Shown: piece by piece, positions 21,760-38,407 of the stretch
How the letters are laid out: every line of letters begins with the position of its first letter
Numbering within the stretch: position 1 is the stretch's first letter
Source of the DNA: Candidatus Latescibacterota bacterium
GTDB lineage: Bacteria > Latescibacterota > UBA2968
Direction of reading: 5' to 3'
NCBI GenBank assembly: GCA_965198115.1
Contig: OZ240241.1
Coordinates: 1,952,001 to 2,016,000 of the forward strand
DNA length: 64,000 nt
Translations under genes and position numbers: made by a program
The notes under the pieces: generated by a model
Seen by the model: the letters and a program-made list of their open reading frames with translations, nothing else
Database searches by the model: none
Told to the model about the DNA's origin: nothing

Positions 21760-21835
21760 TGGCAGGCCAGACAGGAATCGAACCCGTAACCGCCGGTTTT
21801 GGAGACCGGTGCTCTACCAATTGAGCTACTGGCCT
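21760..21835 (-). tRNA. tRNA-Trp (CCA)
   Basis: AGGCCAGTAGCTCAATTGGTAGAGCACCGGTCTCCAAAACCGG...GGTTCGATTCC...GCCA, 76 nt. Confidence 0.97.
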
Positions 21836-21872
21836 ACGCCATTCCCAGGACCGGGGATGCCCCGATCTAACC

Positions 21873-21948
21873 TGGAGCCCACGACCGGACTCGAACCGGT
21901 GACCTCCTCCTTACCAAGGAGGTGCTCTACCGACTGAGCTACATGGGC
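21873..21948 (-). tRNA. tRNA-Thr (GGT)
   Basis: GCCCATGTAGCTCAGTCGGTAGAGCACCTCCTTGGTAAGGAGG...GGTTCGAGTCC...TCCA, 76 nt. Confidence 0.97.
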
Positions 21949-21988
21949 TCGGCAGCCCGATCGTAGTCCCAGACCGAGCTCGCACGAG

Positions 21989-22064
<76 letters not shown>

Positions 22065-22139
22065 CCTAGCAGCATTTTTCTCGGATTGATTGTGACACCT
22101 GGTAATGCGGACAGACCGATGAAAAAACCACAGACTAAA

Positions 22140-22168
22140 AAACTATTAAAGTTACGAAAAAGAGTCAA
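22140..22168 (-). promoter_or_regulatory. Sigma70-type promoter for tRNA-Gly-Thr-Trp-secE-nusG
   Basis: TTGACT, 17 bp spacer, TAGTTT in AT-rich context. Confidence 0.65.
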
Positions 22169-22335
22169 GTGATTTCTTAAGCTTTCCTTTTCCGCAACAA
22201 AAGCTGTAACTCTGGTAAAATAAGCGGCTTGGACCGCGAACTGACGAGGATGGGGAGTCGGTGTTGGGTGGATATTCGGATGGAGTCGCTCCTCCCGGAA
22301 AGCACCCGGGAGGGAGAGACGCGAGAGAAGTTTTT

Positions 22336-22421
22336 TGGTGGGGAGTGGCGGATTCGAACCACCGAAGGCGATAGCCAACAGATTTACAGTCTGCCCCGTT
22401 TGACCGCTCCGGAAACTCCCC
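22336..22421 (-). tRNA. tRNA-Tyr (GTA)
   Basis: GGGGAGTTTCCGGAGCGGTCAAACGGGGCAGACTGTAAATCTG, long variable arm, ...CTCCCCACCA, 86 nt. Confidence 0.97.
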
Positions 22422-28624: not shown

Positions 28625-29305
28625 TCAGTCCGAAGCGGGGGGGTCGGGCACGATTCGTCGTCCGCTCACCAGATGTCCGAAGACAAAAGCGAACACCGCC
28701 GTCAGGTAGAAGTGCAACACGGAGAGGACGAGAGGACCCAGGTAGGGAATGCCCACGAGGATGAGAAATGTCATCATCCAGAGCCCGAGGTAAAGGAGAC
28801 ATAGCTGCACGTAGTCGACCCGGACGATGCGACGCAGATCTCGCAAGAGCACGTCCGGCTCGAAAGCCGCCCAGATACGGCGTTCTTCCGCGTAACGTGC
28901 GTAGACCACGGGGGAGAGCGCGTTGAAGACGGCCAGGCTGAACAGCCCGATGGCGAGAACTCTTTGGGGTTCGTCAAAACGTCCAGCGCCCGCGATGGCC
29001 AGGACCGCCACGGCCGCGAAGGCGATCAGCACCAGATAGCCGAGCGTGATGGCGAACAGCCTCAGTCCGACCGACCAGTAGGTCCGCCATCCCGTCCAGC
29101 CAGGAAGCGTCAGCGCGGGTGCGCGATTCAGTCCATCGATGAAGATCCGGTAGAGGTAACCCCACGCAGCGAAGTTCACGACTGGAATGATGCTCAGCAG
29201 GCCACCGACCACGATGCGCATACGGGCGCCCGGTTCCCGTGCGGGCACCCGCATCGTTGCGAGGAGCAGGGCCGCTGTCTGTTGTGGATTGGGTTCCCCG
29301 TCCAC
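28625..29305 (-). CDS. DUF4013-like membrane protein
   Basis: GGLLSIIPVVNFAAWGY...LPGW..W motif and several TM helices. Confidence 0.7.
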   Translation of the reverse strand: MDGEPNPQQTAALLLATMRVPAREPGARMRIVVGGLLSIIPVVNFAAWGYLYRIFIDGLNRAPALTLPGWTGWRTYWSVGLRLFAITLGYLVLIAFAAVAVLAIAGAGRFDEPQRVLAIGLFSLAVFNALSPVVYARYAEERRIWAAFEPDVLLRDLRRIVRVDYVQLCLLYLGLWMMTFLILVGIPYLGPLVLSVLHFYLTAVFAFVFGHLVSGRRIVPDPPASD

Positions 29306-29308
29306 GTC

Positions 29309-30502
29309 TCAGATCGCTTCCAACGCCCGACTCAAGTCGTCGATCAGATCCTCAGCGTCTTCAACCCCGACGGAATATCGGACCAGCTCGTCGTCGATTC
29401 CCATCTCGATTCTGTCCTCCCTCGCCAGCTCATAGTAGGAGATCGTAGACGGGTGTGAGACGATGCTTTCGACTCCACCCAGGCTGGCTCCGATACACGG
29501 AACCTTGAGCGCATCGAGGAACCGGAACGTCCCCTCCAGATCGCTGTCCAGATCGAAACTGACGACGCCACCGAACCCCGTCATCTGTGCTCGTGCGATC
29601 TCATGATGGGGGTGGGAAGGCAGACCGGGATAATAGACGCGTCGAACCTTGCTGCTCTCTTCGAGAAACCGCGCGATGGCCAGTGCCGAAGCGTTCTGCT
29701 GTGCCATCCTCAGAGGGAACGTCTTCAACCCTCGGATCAGGAGGTAGGCACAGTGCGGATCGATGACGCCTCCGAAAATGCCCCGGTAGTCCTTCACCGC
29801 CGAGACGAGCGGTTCGGCGCCCAACACGGCGCCGGCCATCAGGTCGTTGTGCCCCCCCAGATACTTCGTCGCGCTGTGTACGACGAGATCGACGCCGAAC
29901 TCCAGTGGACGTTGGTTCAGCGGCGTGGCAAACGTACTGTCGATGATGACCTTCATCCGATTCGCCCGGGCTACGGCCACCGTCCGTTCCAGGTCTAGTA
30001 CATTCAGGTGCGGGTTGGTCGGAGACTCTGAAACGATAACACGCGTGCTGTCCTGAATGGCCTCCTCAAGGGCGCCATAGTCTCCGGCTGGAACGAAGGT
30101 CGTGGCGACGTCGAACTTATGCAGCACCATCTTGCAAAACTGCTCTGTCTTGCGGTAGCAGTCGTCCATCACGACCGCGTGCTGACCCGACCTCAGCATC
30201 GCGAGCAAGGTCGTGGTCACGGCCGCCATGCCCGTCGAAAACAGGATGGCGGACTCGGCCCCCTCGATGGCCGCGAGTTTTTCCTCGGCAATGCGTTGCG
30301 TCGGGTTGCCGTATCGGCCATAGTCCAACTGACTGTTTCGTCCAGCCACGAAGTCCTCGACTGCCGTCATATTCCGAAACACATAGGTCGAGGTCTGCGC
30401 AATCGGAACGGTCAGGGTGTGGCCCCAGTGCTCGCAGGCCTCTCCTCCGTGGACAGCCCGAGTGGACGTACACGGGGTCTTTACATCTTTTGGGTCGTTC
30501 AT
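29309..30502 (-). CDS. metB: Cystathionine gamma-synthase, plant CGS-like (Cys/Met PLP enzyme)
   Basis: [32 protein letters not shown] (PLP lysine), SLGGVES; preceded by a SAM riboswitch. Confidence 0.85.
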
Positions 30503-30517
30503 CGGCTTATCCTCAAC

Positions 30518-30550
30518 AAAAAATCCCCGGGCCGCACACAGGACCAGGGA
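30518..30550 (-). terminator. Intrinsic terminator/attenuator in metB leader
   Basis: Minus strand TCCCTGGTCC...GGCCCGGGGA followed by TTTTTT, just before the RBS. Confidence 0.65.
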
Positions 30551-30579
30551 CAATATCATCGCGATCGGATCATCGTGGC

Positions 30580-30627
30580 CTTTTAGCGATTCTTTAGAGT
30601 GGCTGCAATATGCCGCAAATCACCACT
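30580..30627 (-). ncRNA. SAM-II (SAM_alpha-like) riboswitch
   Basis: AGTGG-TGATTTG-CGGCATA-TTGCAG-CCACT-CTAAAGAATC-GCTAAAAG fits the recalled SAM-II pattern GTGGTGATTTG...TTGCAGCCAC..TAAA...CGCTAAA; P1 AGTGG/CCACT; upstream of a Met gene. Confidence 0.85.
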
Positions 30628-30653
30628 ATGGACGTTCTACGTCGTGTGGCCAG

Positions 30654-30682
30654 AATCTATCCGTTTGCTCCGGCCGTGTCAA
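30654..30682 (-). promoter_or_regulatory. Sigma70-type promoter of metB leader
   Basis: TTGACA (overlapping the thrC stop), 17 bp spacer, TAGATT. Confidence 0.75.
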
Positions 30683-32031
30683 CCCGGCTGCGAACGTGCC
30701 TCGATACGATCGAGCAACACGCCCCTGACGGCCTCATAGTTCGCCGCCAGTTCGACCGGCACGTTGGCCAGATCCGGCTGAACATCGAAATCGGCAAGTG
30801 CGTCTCGATGGTAGTTGACCTTGAACTCGGTGAACTTGAGGCCGTGCGCCGTCGACAGAACCACGACCTTCTCGTCCCTCTTTATCACGCCCCGGTTCAG
30901 CAATTTGAGCAGAGCCCCGAAGGCGACACCCGTATGAGGACAACAGAAAAGCCCCGTCTGGTCGGCTCGGGCGGCGGCGTCTGCCAGCTCCTGTTCCGTG
31001 ACCTGCTCGACCACACCGTTGAACATCTTCAGGATCTTGACGGCCTTCTCCTGGCTTACAGGGTTGCCGATCTGAATCGCGCTCGCCAGCGTTGCCTTGG
31101 CCTGCACGGTCTCAAGCGTGTCGAAGTTGTTTTGGTAGCTCAAGTAGAGCGGATTCGCATTCGCGCTCTGGGCAACCGCGATTCGGGGCAGGCGATCGAT
31201 CATCCCGAGCTCCCGCATCTCGAGAAACCCCTTTCCCAGGGCGGTGGGGTTCCCCAGGTTCCCACCCGGAACGACGACCCAATCGGGGACCTGCCAATCA
31301 TCTTGTTGTACCAGTTCGATCGCGACGGTCTTCTGCCCCTCGACACGCAGCGAGTTCATCGAGTTGGCAAGGTAGATGTTCTCGTTGGCACAGATCTCCT
31401 TGACGAGCGCCATGCATCCGTCGAAGTCGGTATCGAGGCTCAGGACGAGGGCTCCGTTCGACATCGGTTGCACCAGTTGGGCCGTCGACACTCTGTCCCT
31501 TGGCAGAAAAACAACCGCCTGCATACCCGCAGCTGCGGCATACGCAGCCAGGGCAGCCGACGTGTCTCCACTCGACGCACACGCCACGGCCGGAATCCTC
31601 TGCCCGTCGAACACCATCTGGTTGACCATCGACACGAGCACCGTCATGCCCAGGTCCTTGAAGGACCCCGTGTGGCTGTTTCCACACTGCTTCACCCAAA
31701 GATCGTCGAGACCGAAGGCTTGCCCCAGACGGTCCACCCAGAAGAGATTGCTCCCGCCCTCGAACATGGACACGACATTTTCATCGTCCACGACTGGGCA
31801 AACCAACTCCTTCTTGCCCCAGACTGAACTGCCATACGGCCACTCCGTCCGCATGAACCGTCTGTCGAACAAATCTTTCCACACATCGGCCGGCTGCTGC
31901 TTCAGGGCTTCTAGGTCGTGCTGGACTTCGAGCAGTCCGCCGCACGACGGGCACTCGTAGACCACCTCGGTCAACGGAAAACACCCGCTGCAGCCGCGCG
32001 AACACTGAAACCAGGCGTTGTAGGAACTCAG
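30679..32031 (-). CDS. thrC: Threonine synthase, plant-like; probable CTG start
   Basis: [16 protein letters not shown] (PLP lysine), [30 protein letters not shown]; frame extends upstream of TTG 31974 to the Cys-rich [11 protein letters not shown] with only CTG 32031 behind an RBS. Confidence 0.92.
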
Positions 32032-32106
32032 AGTCTTGCCCTTTCGATCGGTTGGTAGGCGGCGAATATAGATCGCGACAGGGTAACCTCAAAGGCCTTC
32101 GCGGCG

Positions 32107-32850
32107 TCAGATCTCGAGTAAAACCACCGCCGGAAGCCACCCACCGATCCCGTTGGGCAACCGAACCTGTGTCCAACGTCCCTCGGACCGTTCGACGCCC
32201 ACTTTGGTGCCCTCGTGCAGCGTAAACACCTTTAAGAAATCCTCTCCGGGTCCGCTCCGGCCGTCGGCCTGTTCGGCCACGATCACGGCTTCGGGTCGAT
32301 TCCGGTCTTCGACCTTCGTCAAGAGCAGCGCCAGACTGATGACACCGACGACGAAGACGATCCCCCCCGACGCCGCGCAGAACGTCCGAGCACTCGGCCG
32401 CAGGAGCCGGACGATACCGAGCAGGGCAATCCCGAACAGACTCAGACACGACACGACCGCCAGAAAACCGATCCCCAGCGCCCGATACATCGCCTTCGCT
32501 ACACGCGTGACGACATTCTGCTCTTCGCTCTCGACCCGATCCACCTTTCTCGCGTTCGCGATAACCAGATTCGCACGCGCATCCTCGTCTCCGGGGCTCA
32601 AACGGAGGACGCGCTCGTAGGCCACGATGGCTCGGCCGAGTCGACCCGCCTTGAACGCGGCGTTTCCCAGATTGTAGTGCAGTCTGTCGTTCCGAAGTCC
32701 GGTCGCAACAATCGATTCGTAGCGTTCGAGGGCGTATTCGTAGTCACCCGCACGATACAATGCGTTGGCTTCGTTGTAGAGATCGCCAACCGCTCCCGAT
32801 CCTCGAGCCGAACCGCTGATCAATAGGAGGGTGATCAGCAGACCCGTCAC
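32107..32850 (-). CDS. batE: BatE-like TPR/SH3 protein
   Basis: ANALYRAGDY..A...LHYNLGNA..K, TM helices, LHEGTKV...W..V.LPNG..GW. Confidence 0.85.
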   Translation of the reverse strand: MTGLLITLLLISGSARGSGAVGDLYNEANALYRAGDYEYALERYESIVATGLRNDRLHYNLGNAAFKAGRLGRAIVAYERVLRLSPGDEDARANLVIANARKVDRVESEEQNVVTRVAKAMYRALGIGFLAVVSCLSLFGIALLGIVRLLRPSARTFCAASGGIVFVVGVISLALLLTKVEDRNRPEAVIVAEQADGRSGPGEDFLKVFTLHEGTKVGVERSEGRWTQVRLPNGIGGWLPAVVLLEI

Positions 32851-34679
32851 CTCAGTCGCTCCAGCGTGTCAATCGTCGTTCTGGTACGATCCAGCAAGTC
32901 ACGCATGTCCGTTTCGGTCCCGGCGACCGACGCAAATCTCGCGAGATCGCAAGCCCGTAGGATGGACACGGCGGTCGCCGTCGCCTCGGGGTCGGCTGCT
33001 CTTTCCCGCAGGGCACTCTCTGCCTGATCGGGTGTGAGACCCCGCTCCTGCAGGTTCAACCGGTCGGCCAAAAAGGCCGACAGGGCCCGATTGATCTCGG
33101 AATGGAACGCTCCCGTATCTCCAACACCCATCAGTCGTTCGGCTTCGGCCAGCCGCTTCCGCGCGTGCCCCCGGCTCCGGCGTCGACGGGCATATGCCAC
33201 GTCCCCCGTCAACCGTCGCTGATGACGTTGCCACGCGAAGGCCAGCAGAAACCCGACGACAGGAACTCCCTGCAAGATCAGGAACCACCAGGACTCGTGA
33301 AACATGCTACCCTGATCGACCAGTCGATCCGCATCACCTTTAATATGTCGAATGTCCTCACCCAAGAGCCGGACCGACTCGCTCGACGCCATCGCCGTGA
33401 TGGCCTCCGGTTGAAGTGCGGACAGAACACGCAGCGAGATTACCTCGGCCCTGGCGATCTCGTAGGCTGCGGACGAAGGATCGAAGTAGGCCATCTCGAC
33501 GGGTGGCAGGTCGAGATCGCCTTCTACACTGGGGATAACGACGAACTCGAACGTCTTGTAACCCGTCACTGCACGACCGTCGAAACGGGTCTCGAGTGTG
33601 GTCTTGGGATCGTAGACCTTAAAGTGATCATTCAGGTCCAGCACCGGGGCCCCCGCAGAGTGCAGGTTGCCACGTCCGTTCACTTTCACCGTCAACGTGA
33701 CCGGATCGCCACGTCTCACCTCGACCGGTTTCGCGCTGGCCTCTAGTACGTAGCGCCCGACGGCACCCGTGAAGGATGCCGGAGCGGCTTTGGGGAGTGG
33801 CTTGACGACGATTGCCAGATCCTCGGACCGCACGGTCACCTGTTGTGTCTTGAACGGGTCGAACCCCATGAAATCATCGACATCGAACAGACTCCGTCGT
33901 CTCGACCGAACCGGTATGTCGCATTGAACTTCGAGCTGCTCGAGATCGTGCGTGCCCTCGGTCGTCGGGAACAAGGCAACCTTTTTGAGAGAAGATCGAT
34001 TGTAGGCCTGGCCGTCGACGACCGCCCGCCGTTGCTCCAGGCGACTCGCATCGAACACGGTTTCCGCCCAGAATCCCGTGAACGACGGGAGGTGGCCGTA
34101 GCGTACGTTCTGGAGTTGAAATCGCGAATAGAGATCGTAGCTCACGAGCACCTGCTCCCCGACAAAAACCGCAGGCCGGTCGGCCGTGGCCCGGATGAAA
34201 AGGTTCTTTTCGATCTCCTGAAGCTGGCGAGCGTTCGGTTGTGCCCCGCCCTGACGCGTGGAGGTCCGTGGCCTGGCGAGGCCCTGCACCGCCTCCACAC
34301 GCACCGGATTGGACTGGAACACGCGCCCTTCGTGGCTAAGTCGCACAGGACCCAGAACAAAGGTGCCGGATTCCCCTACGCGGAGCGTGTGTGAACGAGT
34401 CAGCGTTCGCGTCTGCGTCATGGCGCCACCCACGACCTGGATCGAGGTCGACGTCGAAGAGGACTGGCGGATCACCTCCACCTCGTCCGGCAAACCGAGA
34501 TCTATATCGGGTGAACCCAACACACGCTCTAACTCGATCACGACGTTGAACGAGAAGGGATCGTCGACCGCGACACGCGTTCGGTCGACGGAAGCCTGGA
34601 TATGGACAGTCTGTCCCACAGCCGGCCCCGTGAACCGCAGGAACAACAGGACCATCCAGATGACGCGCACGGTCACCAC
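32847..34679 (-). CDS. batD: BatD family protein
   Basis: Signal peptide, ASVDRTRV, VFVGEQVLV.Y, FTGAVG, YFDP, DIRHIK, C-terminal TM; operon context. Confidence 0.85.
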   Translation of the reverse strand: MVTVRVIWMVLLFLRFTGPAVGQTVHIQASVDRTRVAVDDPFSFNVVIELERVLGSPDIDLGLPDEVEVIRQSSSTSTSIQVVGGAMTQTRTLTRSHTLRVGESGTFVLGPVRLSHEGRVFQSNPVRVEAVQGLARPRTSTRQGGAQPNARQLQEIEKNLFIRATADRPAVFVGEQVLVSYDLYSRFQLQNVRYGHLPSFTGFWAETVFDASRLEQRRAVVDGQAYNRSSLKKVALFPTTEGTHDLEQLEVQCDIPVRSRRRSLFDVDDFMGFDPFKTQQVTVRSEDLAIVVKPLPKAAPASFTGAVGRYVLEASAKPVEVRRGDPVTLTVKVNGRGNLHSAGAPVLDLNDHFKVYDPKTTLETRFDGRAVTGYKTFEFVVIPSVEGDLDLPPVEMAYFDPSSAAYEIARAEVISLRVLSALQPEAITAMASSESVRLLGEDIRHIKGDADRLVDQGSMFHESWWFLILQGVPVVGFLLAFAWQRHQRRLTGDVAYARRRRSRGHARKRLAEAERLMGVGDTGAFHSEINRALSAFLADRLNLQERGLTPDQAESALRERAADPEATATAVSILRACDLARFASVAGTETDMRDLLDRTRTTIDTLERLR

Positions 34680-35452
34680 GCCTTCCCTCTATAACGCGGG
34701 CCGACCAATCGGACCTTCCGGCGTTTTTGGGCATCCGCTTCCCTGTCCTTCATGGCATCGAGCAGCCGCTCGGCCTCTTCCGGCGAGAGCTGACCCTCAG
34801 CGGACGTTCGTCCATCCTCGGACTGTCGATTCTGTTGTTCGTCGTCCACACGCGACTCCGGTTGCGGGGGTTGCTTCCCCTCCTGTTCGCCCGGGTTCGA
34901 CTCGTCGGATCGATCTTCCGGAGGTTGCTCGTCCTCGCCCGTTCGTTCTTCGCTGTCCTGCTGCTGATCATCGTCATTCTCGCCGCTCTCGCCTTCGTCC
35001 TGATCCTGCTGGCCCTGTTCGTCCAGCATGTCGTTGGCCAGCTCCAGATTGATCTTCGTATCCACCTGATCGGGGTTCAGGGTCAGTGCCTTCTCGTAGG
35101 CGTCGATGGCGCTTTGGAAATCCTTCTTCCTAAAGTGCGAGTTCCCGAGGTTGTGGTAGGCCGATGCCGCGAGGGCGGCATCTTCCGACTCAGCCGCCTG
35201 GGCGAACGATGCGATCGCCTCGTCGTAGTCCTCTTCCCTGTAGAGCGCATCGCCCACGTTATAGCGCAGACCCCGCTCTTCGGGCCGGTCCACTTGTGCT
35301 TCCCGATACTTGGAGAGGGCCTCGGCGAACCGGCCTTCGCCGTAGAGCACGTTGCCTTCCTCTGCCTTCTGTGCAACCGGGTCGAGGAAGGTGAAGCCGA
35401 GGGAGCAAACCGCACATGGCGCGATCAGCCACGCACGAACGATCCGGTTCAC
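34673..35452 (-). CDS. batC: BatC-like TPR protein with acidic Gln-rich tail
   Basis: YNVGDALY, YHNLGNSHF, AYEKAL..NP..K.NLELA, LSPEEAERLLDAM, terminal W. Confidence 0.82.
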   Translation of the reverse strand: MNRIVRAWLIAPCAVCSLGFTFLDPVAQKAEEGNVLYGEGRFAEALSKYREAQVDRPEERGLRYNVGDALYREEDYDEAIASFAQAAESEDAALAASAYHNLGNSHFRKKDFQSAIDAYEKALTLNPDQVDTKINLELANDMLDEQGQQDQDEGESGENDDDQQQDSEERTGEDEQPPEDRSDESNPGEQEGKQPPQPESRVDDEQQNRQSEDGRTSAEGQLSPEEAERLLDAMKDREADAQKRRKVRLVGPRYRGKAW

Positions 35453-36474
35453 GATTCGAACCTCCCCTGCCACGTCGCATCCTCCCGTCGTCTGTCCGAC
35501 AGGAAGCTTTCGACAATCAGGCACACGAGCGCCAACCCGAGGGGCCACTGATACCGATGACGATACTGGGACAGGGTCCGCGTGCCCAGGTCCTTCTTCT
35601 CCATCGCCGCGATCTGCCCATAAACCTCCTCGAGCCCGACGCCCCCACCTTGAGCGCGCACATACCCGCCCTGCGTCATCCGCCCGATCTCCTGAAGGGT
35701 GGACTCGTCGAGACGCGTCTTCACTACGTTCCCCTGATCGTCCTTCAGAAAGTCGACGTGTCCGTTCTGCCGTACGGGAATCAACTCACCCTCTTTCGTT
35801 CCGATCCCTACACAGAAAACACGAACACCGGCTTCGGCTGCCTCGCCGGCGGCTTCGATCGGATCGTCAGCGTGGTCTTCCCCGTCCGTGATCAGTACGA
35901 GCGCCTTGTGCTTGCGTTCATCACTCCCGAAGGCGCGTGTCGCCGTCCGGATTGCGCTCGCAATCGCCGTACCCCTCGCCGGGATCAGCCCCGTATCAAC
36001 CGAATCGAGAAACAGCTTCGCAGCACCGTAGTCGAGTGTGAGCGGACAGAGGACGAAACTCTGCCCGGCGAACGCGACCAGACCGATGCGATCGCCCTCG
36101 AGGCGATCGATGAATGACTCGATCTCGTAGCGTGCCCGCAAGAGTCGGTTGGGCTGAATGTCCTCGGCCAGCATGCTCAGCGACGTATCTAGTGCGACGA
36201 GCACGTCGACCCCACGTCGGTGTACGGTGTCCGTTCGTGACCCGAAACGGGGTTCGACAAGGGCCAGACACAGAAAGAAGAAAAACACCAGCATCAGGGA
36301 CGCCTTCAAGACCTGGCGTGGTCGACTCGTCGCCGATGTCAGCTTCCGCATCAGGACTGGGGCGCCGAATCGCGCCAAGGCAGCTGCTCTGGCACGGAAC
36401 GACCAGACGTAGAGACCGAACAACGCCGGCAGCGCGAGCAGATACCAAAACGCCTGAGGGTTCCCGAAGCGCAC
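35449..36474 (-). CDS. batB: VWA domain protein BatB
   Basis: MIDAS DTSLSM, PNRLLRA, PLTLDY, LITDGED. Confidence 0.88.
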   Translation of the reverse strand: MRFGNPQAFWYLLALPALFGLYVWSFRARAAALARFGAPVLMRKLTSATSRPRQVLKASLMLVFFFFLCLALVEPRFGSRTDTVHRRGVDVLVALDTSLSMLAEDIQPNRLLRARYEIESFIDRLEGDRIGLVAFAGQSFVLCPLTLDYGAAKLFLDSVDTGLIPARGTAIASAIRTATRAFGSDERKHKALVLITDGEDHADDPIEAAGEAAEAGVRVFCVGIGTKEGELIPVRQNGHVDFLKDDQGNVVKTRLDESTLQEIGRMTQGGYVRAQGGGVGLEEVYGQIAAMEKKDLGTRTLSQYRHRYQWPLGLALVCLIVESFLSDRRREDATWQGRFES

Positions 36475-37469
36475 TACGGAATCCTCCTCAACCGTGTATT
36501 GCCGAGGAGAGACTCGGTCCCCAGAAGAATCGCACCCGGCAGCAGCAGAATCGCGAACAGTTCTGAGTAGTTCACGTATTCTCGTGTCTTAATCTCCGTC
36601 CTCTCCATCTCGCCGATCTCCGCGTAGATCGCCTCCAGCTTTTCTTCGCTCGTCGCTCGGAAGTAGCGTCCGCCCGTCATGCTCGCTACCTCTTTGAGAG
36701 TGGCTTCATCGATTTCGACACGAACGCGAACGTTTCGCGGACCGAAAAGGCCTCCGTCGACGCGCCTCAGAATCTCCCCCTCGCTGCCGGCTCCGATGGT
36801 GTAGATACGCACGCCGACCGCCTCGGCGGCTCGCGCGGCCGTTGAGGGATCCACTTCGCCGCGGTTGTTCAAGCCATCCGTCAGCAGCACCACGACTTTC
36901 GACCGGGCGTCTGAATCTCTGAGACGGTTGACGGCTGTCGCGATGGCCGTCCCGATCGCCGTCCCATCCCAGTCCTCCTCGGCGATACGGACCTCCTTCA
37001 AGAAGTCGAGGAAAACTCCGTAGTCCAGCGTCAAGGGACATTGCGTGTAGGCCTCGCCCGCGAAGACGACGAGACCCAGGCGGTCGTTCACGCGGCCGCC
37101 GACGAAGTCAGCCACGACCTGCTTGCAGACTTCGAGACGAGACACCTTGGCCAGATCGGCGGCTTCCATGCTGCTCGAAGCGTCGATGGCCAAGACGATG
37201 TCGATACCCCGGCTCAGGATCTCCCGTCCCTCGCGACCCGATTGTGGGCGTGCAAGGGCGAGCGTGAGCAAGGCCAACCCGGCGCAACGCAGGATGACGA
37301 GAACGTGCCTCAGTCTAATGGCCGGGGACGGTACGATCTCGCGAAGGGCCGTGAGGTCCGAAAACCGAATGCTCCCTCGCTTTTGCCGCTCTCGATGCAC
37401 ATACCGGTAGAGGAGAACCGGAATCAGCAGGAGCAGGAGCAGCCACTCCGGATTCACGAATCGAATCAA
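36474..37469 (-). CDS. batA: VWA domain protein BatA
   Basis: LARPQ, GIDIVLAIDASSSM, GTAIG, LLTDGLNN.G. Confidence 0.9.
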   Translation of the reverse strand: MIRFVNPEWLLLLLLIPVLLYRYVHRERQKRGSIRFSDLTALREIVPSPAIRLRHVLVILRCAGLALLTLALARPQSGREGREILSRGIDIVLAIDASSSMEAADLAKVSRLEVCKQVVADFVGGRVNDRLGLVVFAGEAYTQCPLTLDYGVFLDFLKEVRIAEEDWDGTAIGTAIATAVNRLRDSDARSKVVVLLTDGLNNRGEVDPSTAARAAEAVGVRIYTIGAGSEGEILRRVDGGLFGPRNVRVRVEIDEATLKEVASMTGGRYFRATSEEKLEAIYAEIGEMERTEIKTREYVNYSELFAILLLPGAILLGTESLLGNTRLRRIP

Positions 37470-38407
37470 GAATCGGCCCCCTCTCCGGTCGACTCCTCGG
37501 TCCCCACAAAAGGCTTCAGATCCGCGTCGATTCCCCCCATGGCATCGAGCACGCGGATGAGGTCCTGTCGGGCTCTATCGGGTCCCGGCGCGAACTTCGC
37601 GAACTTGACCAAATCGGCCTCCGACAAGAATCCCTGAACGTCGACCACTCGACCAGAACCGAGGCCTGCAACAGACAAGTCGTCGCCCACCTCGTCAGTC
37701 GTCCGTTCCATGGCCTCCACACCCGTCCGGTCCTCCAGAAACCGTCTGAGCGCTTCGGACAGCGAGGTGTAGTAGGTCAGGAAGTCACCCGCCTCGACCA
37801 GGCCCGAGCGTCCGATTCTCCGAATTTCTTCGAACCAGTCGGGAGGCCGCGGAGGAGGAGCAGGAGCCGCTTTCTTCCTGAAAAAGAACCAGATGGCCGC
37901 TGCGGCCAGAGCCACGAAACAGCAAAGCAAGGCCCACGCCCACCACGGAATCCGTGGCTGGACCACAACAGGGTCGTGGATGTCCGTGATATCCTCGATG
38001 CCTTCCGGTTTGACACTCCCCACGATGATGTCGATGGATGGGGATTCGAGCCGAAGCGTGTCGCCGGCAGCACGGACGATCTGAACGACGGGAGGAGGAA
38101 TCGTATAAGCGCCCGTCTTGAAGGAGGTCAACTCGATCGTTTGTGTGATCAGCTGATCGCCGTCTACACGCGCGGAGGTTGCGCGCGGCGACTCCAGAAC
38201 TTCGAAGGTGGCCGGAAGCCTGAGGTCGGGAATGACCGTGGACGTATCATCGTGATGTCGACGCAAGTCGAGTCGGAGTGCGATCCGGTCGCCGATCGTG
38301 ATCGAATCCCGATCGACGGTCGAGGTGAATTGGAATGCCTCCGAAGCGTCGACGCTCGGGACCGCGACATTCAGAAGCAGACCGAAGAAGAGGAGTCGTC
38401 CCGCCAC
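37466..38407 (-). CDS. Bat-operon accessory membrane protein (BatD/DUF4381-like)
   Basis: Signal peptide, DSITIGD, DITDIHDP plus TM, YTSLSEALRRFLE..AMERTT.E, ADLVKFAK. Confidence 0.7.
   Translation of the reverse strand: MAGRLLFFGLLLNVAVPSVDASEAFQFTSTVDRDSITIGDRIALRLDLRRHHDDTSTVIPDLRLPATFEVLESPRATSARVDGDQLITQTIELTSFKTGAYTIPPPVVQIVRAAGDTLRLESPSIDIIVGSVKPEGIEDITDIHDPVVVQPRIPWWAWALLCCFVALAAAAIWFFFRKKAAPAPPPRPPDWFEEIRRIGRSGLVEAGDFLTYYTSLSEALRRFLEDRTGVEAMERTTDEVGDDLSVAGLGSGRVVDVQGFLSEADLVKFAKFAPGPDRARQDLIRVLDAMGGIDADLKPFVGTEESTGEGADS

Follow-up and report, generated by a model that had tools for sequence, protein, structure and literature searches.

The 64,000-nucleotide stretch analysed here (positions 1,952,001 to 2,016,000 of contig OZ240241.1, assembly GCA_965198115.1, from a Candidatus Latescibacterota bacterium; hereafter the window) contains adjacent genes for a threonine synthase (TS) and for an enzyme of the cystathionine gamma-synthase family (CGS), both of plant type. 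The pair probably represents a real and conserved bacterial entry step into methionine synthesis that is built from plant-type enzymes and draws on O-phosphohomoserine (OPH). TS would turn OPH into threonine, while CGS would take the same OPH into methionine synthesis. Since no match to a homoserine acyltransferase was found in the source genome and the kinase is present, and since CGS falls into the plant clade and carries the Tyr-Arg-Lys motif, its use of OPH appears quite likely. This confidence is divided between two readings that differ in how homocysteine is set free. The one favoured here, tentatively and with slightly less than an even chance of being right, is an OPH branch point at which the CGS-family enzyme probably releases homocysteine itself, under the predicted control of a SAM-II riboswitch (SAM, S-adenosylmethionine) that would shut it off at high SAM.

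A plant-type gene pair

A sequence-only reading of this DNA had placed thrC and metB side by side at 29309..32031 and described both as plant-like. Its coordinates are exact, all the motifs it quoted are present, and the two minus-strand open reading frames (ORFs) are uninterrupted (Table 1). The plant-like character is equally clear against solved structures. TS scores 558 bits with Arabidopsis TS (1e5x/2c2b/2c2g) versus 188 bits with the next-ranked solved TS, and CGS scores 397 bits with tobacco CGS (1qgn), at about 50 % identity, versus 311 bits with the next chain in the PDB.

Table 1. Features of the TS-CGS locus; positions refer to the window
Feature	Position	Strand	Remarks
DUF4013 membrane protein	28625..29305	-	start 3 bases past CGS stop
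CGS, plant-type cystathionine gamma-synthase family enzyme, 397 aa	29309..30502	-	pyridoxal phosphate (PLP) lysine K213; without MTO1 extension
Codons for Tyr116-Arg117-Lys118 of CGS	30149..30157	-	aligned to tobacco Tyr163-Arg164-Lys165
Predicted intrinsic terminator, hairpin and U6 tract	30518..30551	-	between aptamer and CGS ribosome-binding site; predicted fold
SAM-II aptamer (Rfam SAM_alpha, RF00521)	30563..30636	-	42.9 bits; gathering score 36
Internal promoter-like site, sigma-70 type, TTGACA-17-TAGATT	30654..30682	-	10/12; overlaps TS stop codon
TS, plant-type threonine synthase, 450 aa	30679..32031	-	inferred CUG start; N-terminal CxxxC...CxxC; PLP lysine K125
Promoter-like site TTGAGG-16-TATATT, 5' of TS	32065..32092	-	9/12 consensus match only

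TS is of plant type in its sequence and its predicted fold, including the N-terminal region that it has in common with Arabidopsis TS1/MTO2 (1E5X, 2C2B, 2C2G). The single-sequence fold was unusable (predicted local distance difference test, pLDDT, 36.5), and an alignment-based model was used instead (22 sequences, pLDDT 85); its best structural match is 2c2b, with a template modelling score (TM) of 0.87 and 56 % identity. The window enzyme differs from the plant one in retaining the CxxxC...CxxC motif, which plants have lost. Its start codon appears to be a CUG (32029-32031, minus strand) preceded by a purine-rich ribosome-binding site. CUG also occurs in a same-genus genome, where a TATATT box likewise lies 5' of TS; other relatives use AUG, and the public gene call is shorter by 22 residues.

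The length of CGS is counted from the second in-frame ATG. An earlier ATG at 30559 was ruled out as the start: it falls within the leader, ahead of the terminator, and the second site is the one used in relatives. As had been proposed, the protein lacks the MTO1 extension: neither the MTO1 motif nor an N-terminal extension was found in it. The MTO1 region is present in three angiosperm rows of the alignment and absent from those of the alga Ostreobium and one further eukaryote. No model among the 25 best listed from NCBIfam for CGS reached its cut-off; the second-best is methionine gamma-lyase (MGL), at 377 bits.

CGS shares its DCYRK motif with the tobacco and Lens enzymes, two other eukaryote rows having Arg-Arg, while every outgroup row has Tyr-Gly-Gly or another non-basic pair at the Arg-Lys position. 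Lys165 of tobacco CGS is said, in the abstract of Steegborn's 1999 work, to fix the phosphate of OPH, with a glycine at this place in bacterial MetB. Arg117 and Lys118 of the window enzyme may hold the substrate phosphate in the same way. Tyr163 and Lys261 of the tobacco enzyme have been named catalytic (PMC8428831), and the equivalents of Tyr163-Arg164-Lys165 and of Lys261 are all retained in the window protein, for which plant CGS (tobacco 1QGN/1I41, Arabidopsis CGS1) is the best PDB match. The bacterial enzyme differs from its plant counterpart in several respects: it has neither transit peptide nor MTO1 region, it is probably riboswitch-controlled, no conserved cystathionine beta-lyase accompanies it, and its use of OPH is a prediction.

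Absence of homoserine acyltransferases

The source genome is closed (one contig of 8.43 Mb, 100 % complete, 5.1 % contamination). No profile match to metX (TIGR01392) or metA (PF04204) was found in it, and tblastn of the genome with the MetX and MetA proteins of relatives gave nothing below E=1, while the same queries match control loci. Homoserine dehydrogenase is present and ThrB scores over its cut-off. These searches agree with the claim of a methionine route that needs no homoserine acyltransferase. The plant route is complete only with a cystathionine beta-lyase, however, and since none is conserved the original reading needs correction here.

The same pattern extends to relatives, among which the closest named ones, 69-75 % identical, also belong to Ca. 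Latescibacterota. In a sample of 151 genomes of the phylum, each at least 80 % complete, plant-type CGS occurs in 123 (best E about 1e-120 or lower), and 99 of these lack a clear MetX or MetA; two MetX-like matches that reach only about 150 bits were not counted as acyltransferases. Within the order of the window, metX is found in 0/52 genomes, metA in 4/52 and thrB in 51/52. Among the phylum genomes assembled into a single contig, 39/40 carry plant-type CGS; none of these 39 has metX or metA, ThrB is present in 35 and HomK in the remaining four.

Several observations weigh against the OPH branch point. MetX accompanies CGS in 19 of the 123 phylum genomes and MetA in five. The 39 single-contig genomes represent few evolutionary events rather than 39, because they are kin and hence not independent. 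Beyond the phylum the CGS family ranges over Methylomirabilota, Myxococcota, Chloroflexota, Planctomycetota, Binatia and more, and acyltransferases are common there: in 50 genomes, drawn from 50 of the 70 non-Latescibacterota loci, MetX reaches at least 300 bits in 14, gives some match (E<=1e-10) in 25, and MetA occurs in six. A MetX match, partial in one case, was obtained in all eight Planctomycetota, so that the family can exist without loss of acylation. Nor is the active site decisive: an acyltransferase is present in the genomes behind 23 of the 91 loci with two basic residues, compared with 19 of the 28 loci with other pairs (some genomes being counted twice), and a basic pair thus does not cleanly single out acyltransferase-free genomes. 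The idea that plant-type CGS marks the absence of an acyltransferase holds for the source genome but fails in Planctomycetota and others, where MetX coexists with it.

Linkage of the two genes counts in favour of the branch point. At 30 of 80 named loci CGS has a plant-type TS no more than 5 kb away, often nearly overlapping it, and fusions of a TS-like (PALP) domain with CGS exist (P0281, P0261). Two Anaerolineae loci are arranged differently, their plant-type CGS adjoining thrB and a more distant thrC (42 %). One family (f10) seemed to offer a reciprocal pattern, with a Tyr-Gly-basic motif, MetX present and thrB absent; this was weakened by the presence of HomK in 10/11 of its genomes. A group of proteins of 755-770 aa (P0243-P0265), some of them alphaproteobacterial, reaches high scores at only about 40 % identity and perhaps consists of tandem Cys/Met domains.

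Formation of homocysteine

Because no cystathionine beta-lyase travels with CGS, the enzyme would be either an OPH sulfhydrylase, with sulfide as the donor, or a bifunctional synthase/lyase. A single enzyme that gives homocysteine is the simplest and leading reading, and MetBX, one enzyme that does the job without MetC (GapMind 2026), provides a precedent. The route from OPH would then possibly be one step shorter than in plants. Five near-complete genomes (G049, G064, G122, G052, G076), chosen for having few members of the family, contain plant-type CGS as their sole PF01053 enzyme. Moreover, ThiS-type sulfur carriers are fused to plant-type CGS (P0257) or adjacent to it (L116, L125) in a few relatives, which hints at a sulfide-equivalent donor. 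Two points count against self-sufficient release of homocysteine: the five genomes have no full-length MetH, only MetE-core-like proteins, and a second PF01053 enzyme, present in 29/30 members of the window's family, could serve as the lyase. In the source genome itself metH lies in frameshifted pieces in three frames (2498967-2502486, minus strand), perhaps through an assembly error or a real break, and there are five MetE-core-like matches.

The most serious alternative, which we consider doubtful, is the exact plant route, in which OPH and cysteine would be condensed to cystathionine and a separate lyase would free homocysteine. This is the reaction of plant CGS itself (PMC8137854), and all the evidence for OPH applies to it equally. 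The lyase would be the one other full-length PF01053 enzyme of the source genome (874106-875227) or a promiscuous PLP enzyme, and four genes of the CysK/CysM family are available there for cysteine supply. However, the five genomes mentioned above have no second PF01053 member, and this paralogue, present in 14/22 genomes of the sister family, is grouped with neither MetB nor MccB rows and falls below every NCBIfam cut-off. Its neighbours, nitrilase- and oxidoreductase-like by reading of their ORFs, look catabolic. PatB is rare, occurring in 4/151 phylum genomes; the source genome has no match over the cut-off, the two best being aminotransferases.

It is rather improbable that homocysteine comes from elsewhere, either through a thiocarboxylate route like that of MetM/MetO or by means of an unrecognised acyltransferase, with CGS acting on an acyl-homoserine or in an auxiliary role. 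In Streptomyces, MetM/MetO make homocysteine from OPH without acylation, and metM has a SAM riboswitch (Hasebe 2024, cited in GapMind 2026, PMC12172450). A bacterial host, the use of OPH without acylation (presumed here) and a SAM riboswitch are common to both. MetM is a TS homologue (GapMind 2026), and one of the two further TS homologues in the source genome, a PRK08197-type paralogue (607 bits) that is possibly MetM-like, occurs in 51/52 genomes of the order, a point that also tells against CGS as the source of homocysteine. The source genome further encodes four ThiS-family carriers and a Mec gene, and an E. coli metB knockout is complemented by Arabidopsis CGS (PMC8428831), so that plant-type enzymes can work in a homoserine-acylating host. 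Yet the surroundings of the PRK08197 paralogue contain neither a carrier nor a Mec gene at any of 19 loci, a SAM riboswitch is absent from it at 13/13 loci while the only SAM-II match of the genome is on CGS, and the three annotated homologues examined adjoin ABC transporters. MetM is of the TS fold and depends on a sulfur-carrier protein, whereas the window candidate is a fold type I enzyme of the Cys/Met family with no adjoining carrier.

Two observations concern these genes more generally. The PRK08197 paralogue (1712461-1713672 in the source genome) often stands beside squalene/phytoene-synthase-like genes across the order. At about 8182.5-8187.5 kb the source genome has a cluster read as cysH, a cysM-like gene, mec, a flavoprotein, a ThiS-type carrier with a Gly-Gly end, rrf2 and cysK, which likely encodes a thiocarboxylate route to cysteine.

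That CGS is a catabolic or reverse enzyme (MGL or cystathionine gamma-lyase, CGL) standing beside TS by inheritance only is very improbable: functions interconvert within the family and MGL is the second-best NCBIfam model, but an OFF-type SAM riboswitch suits synthesis rather than breakdown, the tree sets the window CGS apart from MGL and CGL rows, and the source genome would be left without a recognised homocysteine route.

A predicted SAM-II riboswitch in front of CGS

The proposal that CGS follows a promoter of its own and a SAM-II riboswitch agrees with the promoter-like site and the aptamer found there (Table 1), and the aptamer is the only SAM-II match in the source genome (150 of 643 candidates scored). 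The promoter scan gives 2 such sites in 3.7 kb versus 0.7 +/- 0.8 in shuffled sequences, which is weak by itself; the TTGACA box at the TS stop is found again in most order-level relatives that have the riboswitch. A simple terminator scan did not pick up the hairpin, which comes from the predicted fold.

The aptamer is present at 16/20 related loci and at 2/20 more distant loci of the phylum. In the relatives its 3' tail is complementary to the loop and arm of the terminator, and the 11-bp pairing between tail and terminator forms the antiterminator. In 28 of 33 distinct leaders, a set with many near-copies, this complementarity exceeds that of dinucleotide shuffles (p<0.05). These leaders fit an OFF switch acting through termination: SAM binding would lock the 3' tail of the aptamer in the pseudoknot and the terminator would form. 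At high SAM, CGS would then be off and OPH left to TS, with or without activation of the latter by SAM. The leader of the window itself, however, lacks the antiterminator motif (p=0.39), as does that of a congener (p=0.42), and this counts against SAM-II control at the window locus. A weaker alternative pairing was seen only in a partial-transcript fold, and the window copy may switch weakly or by other means.

SAM-II (RF00521) is familiar from Alphaproteobacteria, where it precedes metZ and metA of Sinorhizobium meliloti. The aptamer family, a target in the methionine pathway and the intrinsic terminator that follows are common to both; a termination-type OFF switch has been predicted for S. 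meliloti metZ (PMC9373788) and intrinsic terminators have been noted for SAM-II in general (PMC2258182). The difference lies in the host, here Ca. Latescibacterota, and in the target, a plant-type CGS. In the S. meliloti metA leader no antiterminator is predictable either, and the window copy resembles that case.

A SAM-II pattern was found in none of 74 further loci (L055-L128), where TS and CGS mostly form a plain operon; four of these were searched with Rfam and the remainder by pattern alone. The riboswitch is thus a lineage-specific addition seen in few lineages, the plain operon being the usual form of the TS-CGS pair. The suggestion that the regulatory logic of plants is implemented in RNA fits the aptamer before CGS, but it would apply to these few lineages and not to the gene pair as a whole. 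A number of leaders (L035-L037, L041-L048, L171) have two tandem hairpins past the aptamer, each with a GCUUUU anti-tail motif, an arrangement that looks like a duplicated attenuator.

Does SAM also act on threonine synthase?

The SAM site of the plant enzyme, which we take to comprise P102, Y103, G104, S125, A126, F127, N132, L133, K141 and N147 (PDB numbering), is identical at seven of these ten positions in the window TS. The differences are A126 to M, which is also found in Chara and Enallax, K141 to Q and N147 to D; two of the ten positions deviate beyond algal variation. The PY and NL of the site are present too in a TS of 42 % identity. Plant TS is activated by SAM (PMC9081730). For the window enzyme the chances of such activation look about even, because part of the identity in the SAM site is family-wide.

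Phylogeny and the origin of the plant enzymes

A tree of CGS (LG+G4) was calculated from 38 rows; 44 near-duplicate rows had been removed beforehand at 72 % identity, and MetC, one plant row and 13 bacterial rows were left out. Four eukaryote CGS and 24 bacterial rows, the window enzyme among them, form one clade with 100/100 support. All 10 outgroup rows (MetB, MccB, CGL, MGL, MetZ, MetY-like) fall outside it, and in a quick tree of 53 rows that includes E. coli MetC, a long branch, the window and plant enzymes stand together inside a clade of 36 rows with a support of 97. CGS thus groups with plants and not with MetB, MccB, MGL or MetZ, contrary to the grouping with ordinary bacterial enzymes that would have spoken against the original reading. 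MetB, MetZ, MetY, MccB, MGL and the MetBX of Xanthomonadales belong to the same Pfam family, PF01053. The sampled rows, from which MetBX is absent, differ in lying outside the plant-type clade and in having Gly-Gly or another non-basic pair past the Tyr; MetB, MetZ and MetY use acyl-homoserines, unlike plant-type CGS with its presumed use of OPH.

The plant enzymes are nested within the bacterial rows, and their sister is a single Myxococcales sequence (99/99). The lineage of the window is not the donor of plant CGS: a clade of plants with this lineage was rejected by the approximately unbiased test (p-AU 0.00096), the grouping having been named after the tree was seen. As to the origin of the plant enzymes, other sampled bacteria are therefore closer to plant CGS than the window's lineage is. 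In a tree of TS (236 columns, four partial plant rows) the plant rows are sister to the bacterial group that holds the window TS, a placement whose support (90/86) is not strong. A survey from 2012 listed plant CGS and TS as non-cyanobacterial (PMC3518814).

Implications

Dependence of CGS on OPH is generally described as a feature of plants. Among the top-ranked results in open PMC and bioRxiv text, a coverage outside which most subscription journals fall, none reports that a plant-type CGS from a bacterium uses OPH, and such a route was not found in the passages of GapMind 2026 that were searched. Each of the parts is of a known kind, and the bacterial conversion of OPH to homocysteine already has a precedent in MetM. 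If the enzymes use OPH, the methionine 'gap' would close in many uncultured phyla, testable bacterial relatives would be gained for the non-cyanobacterial CGS and TS of plants, and nature would supply an example of this SAM feedback exerted by RNA instead of the nascent peptide. In plants this regulation acts through MTO1 (PMC8137854).

A bolder view can be formulated, which we regard as unlikely in its entirety. The plant-type clade, widespread in Latescibacterota, Methylomirabilota, Myxococcota, Chloroflexota and others, would consist of stand-alone OPH sulfhydrylases and lead from homoserine to homocysteine in two steps, a route not yet described. Both enzymes would have passed to plants from this bacterial pool, the activation of TS by SAM would predate plants, and these bacteria would thus control both arms by SAM as plants do, with the riboswitch replacing MTO1.

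Neighbouring genes

The genes flanking the TS-CGS pair in the window encode a TPR/SH3 protein and the DUF4013 protein (Table 1). The latter is probably co-transcribed with CGS; at the window locus it gives no sign of membership in the pathway. Upstream of TS (32107-38407) several vWA/TPR genes follow one another in a manner similar to a bat operon; these are ordinary, as are four tRNA genes at 21763-22421.

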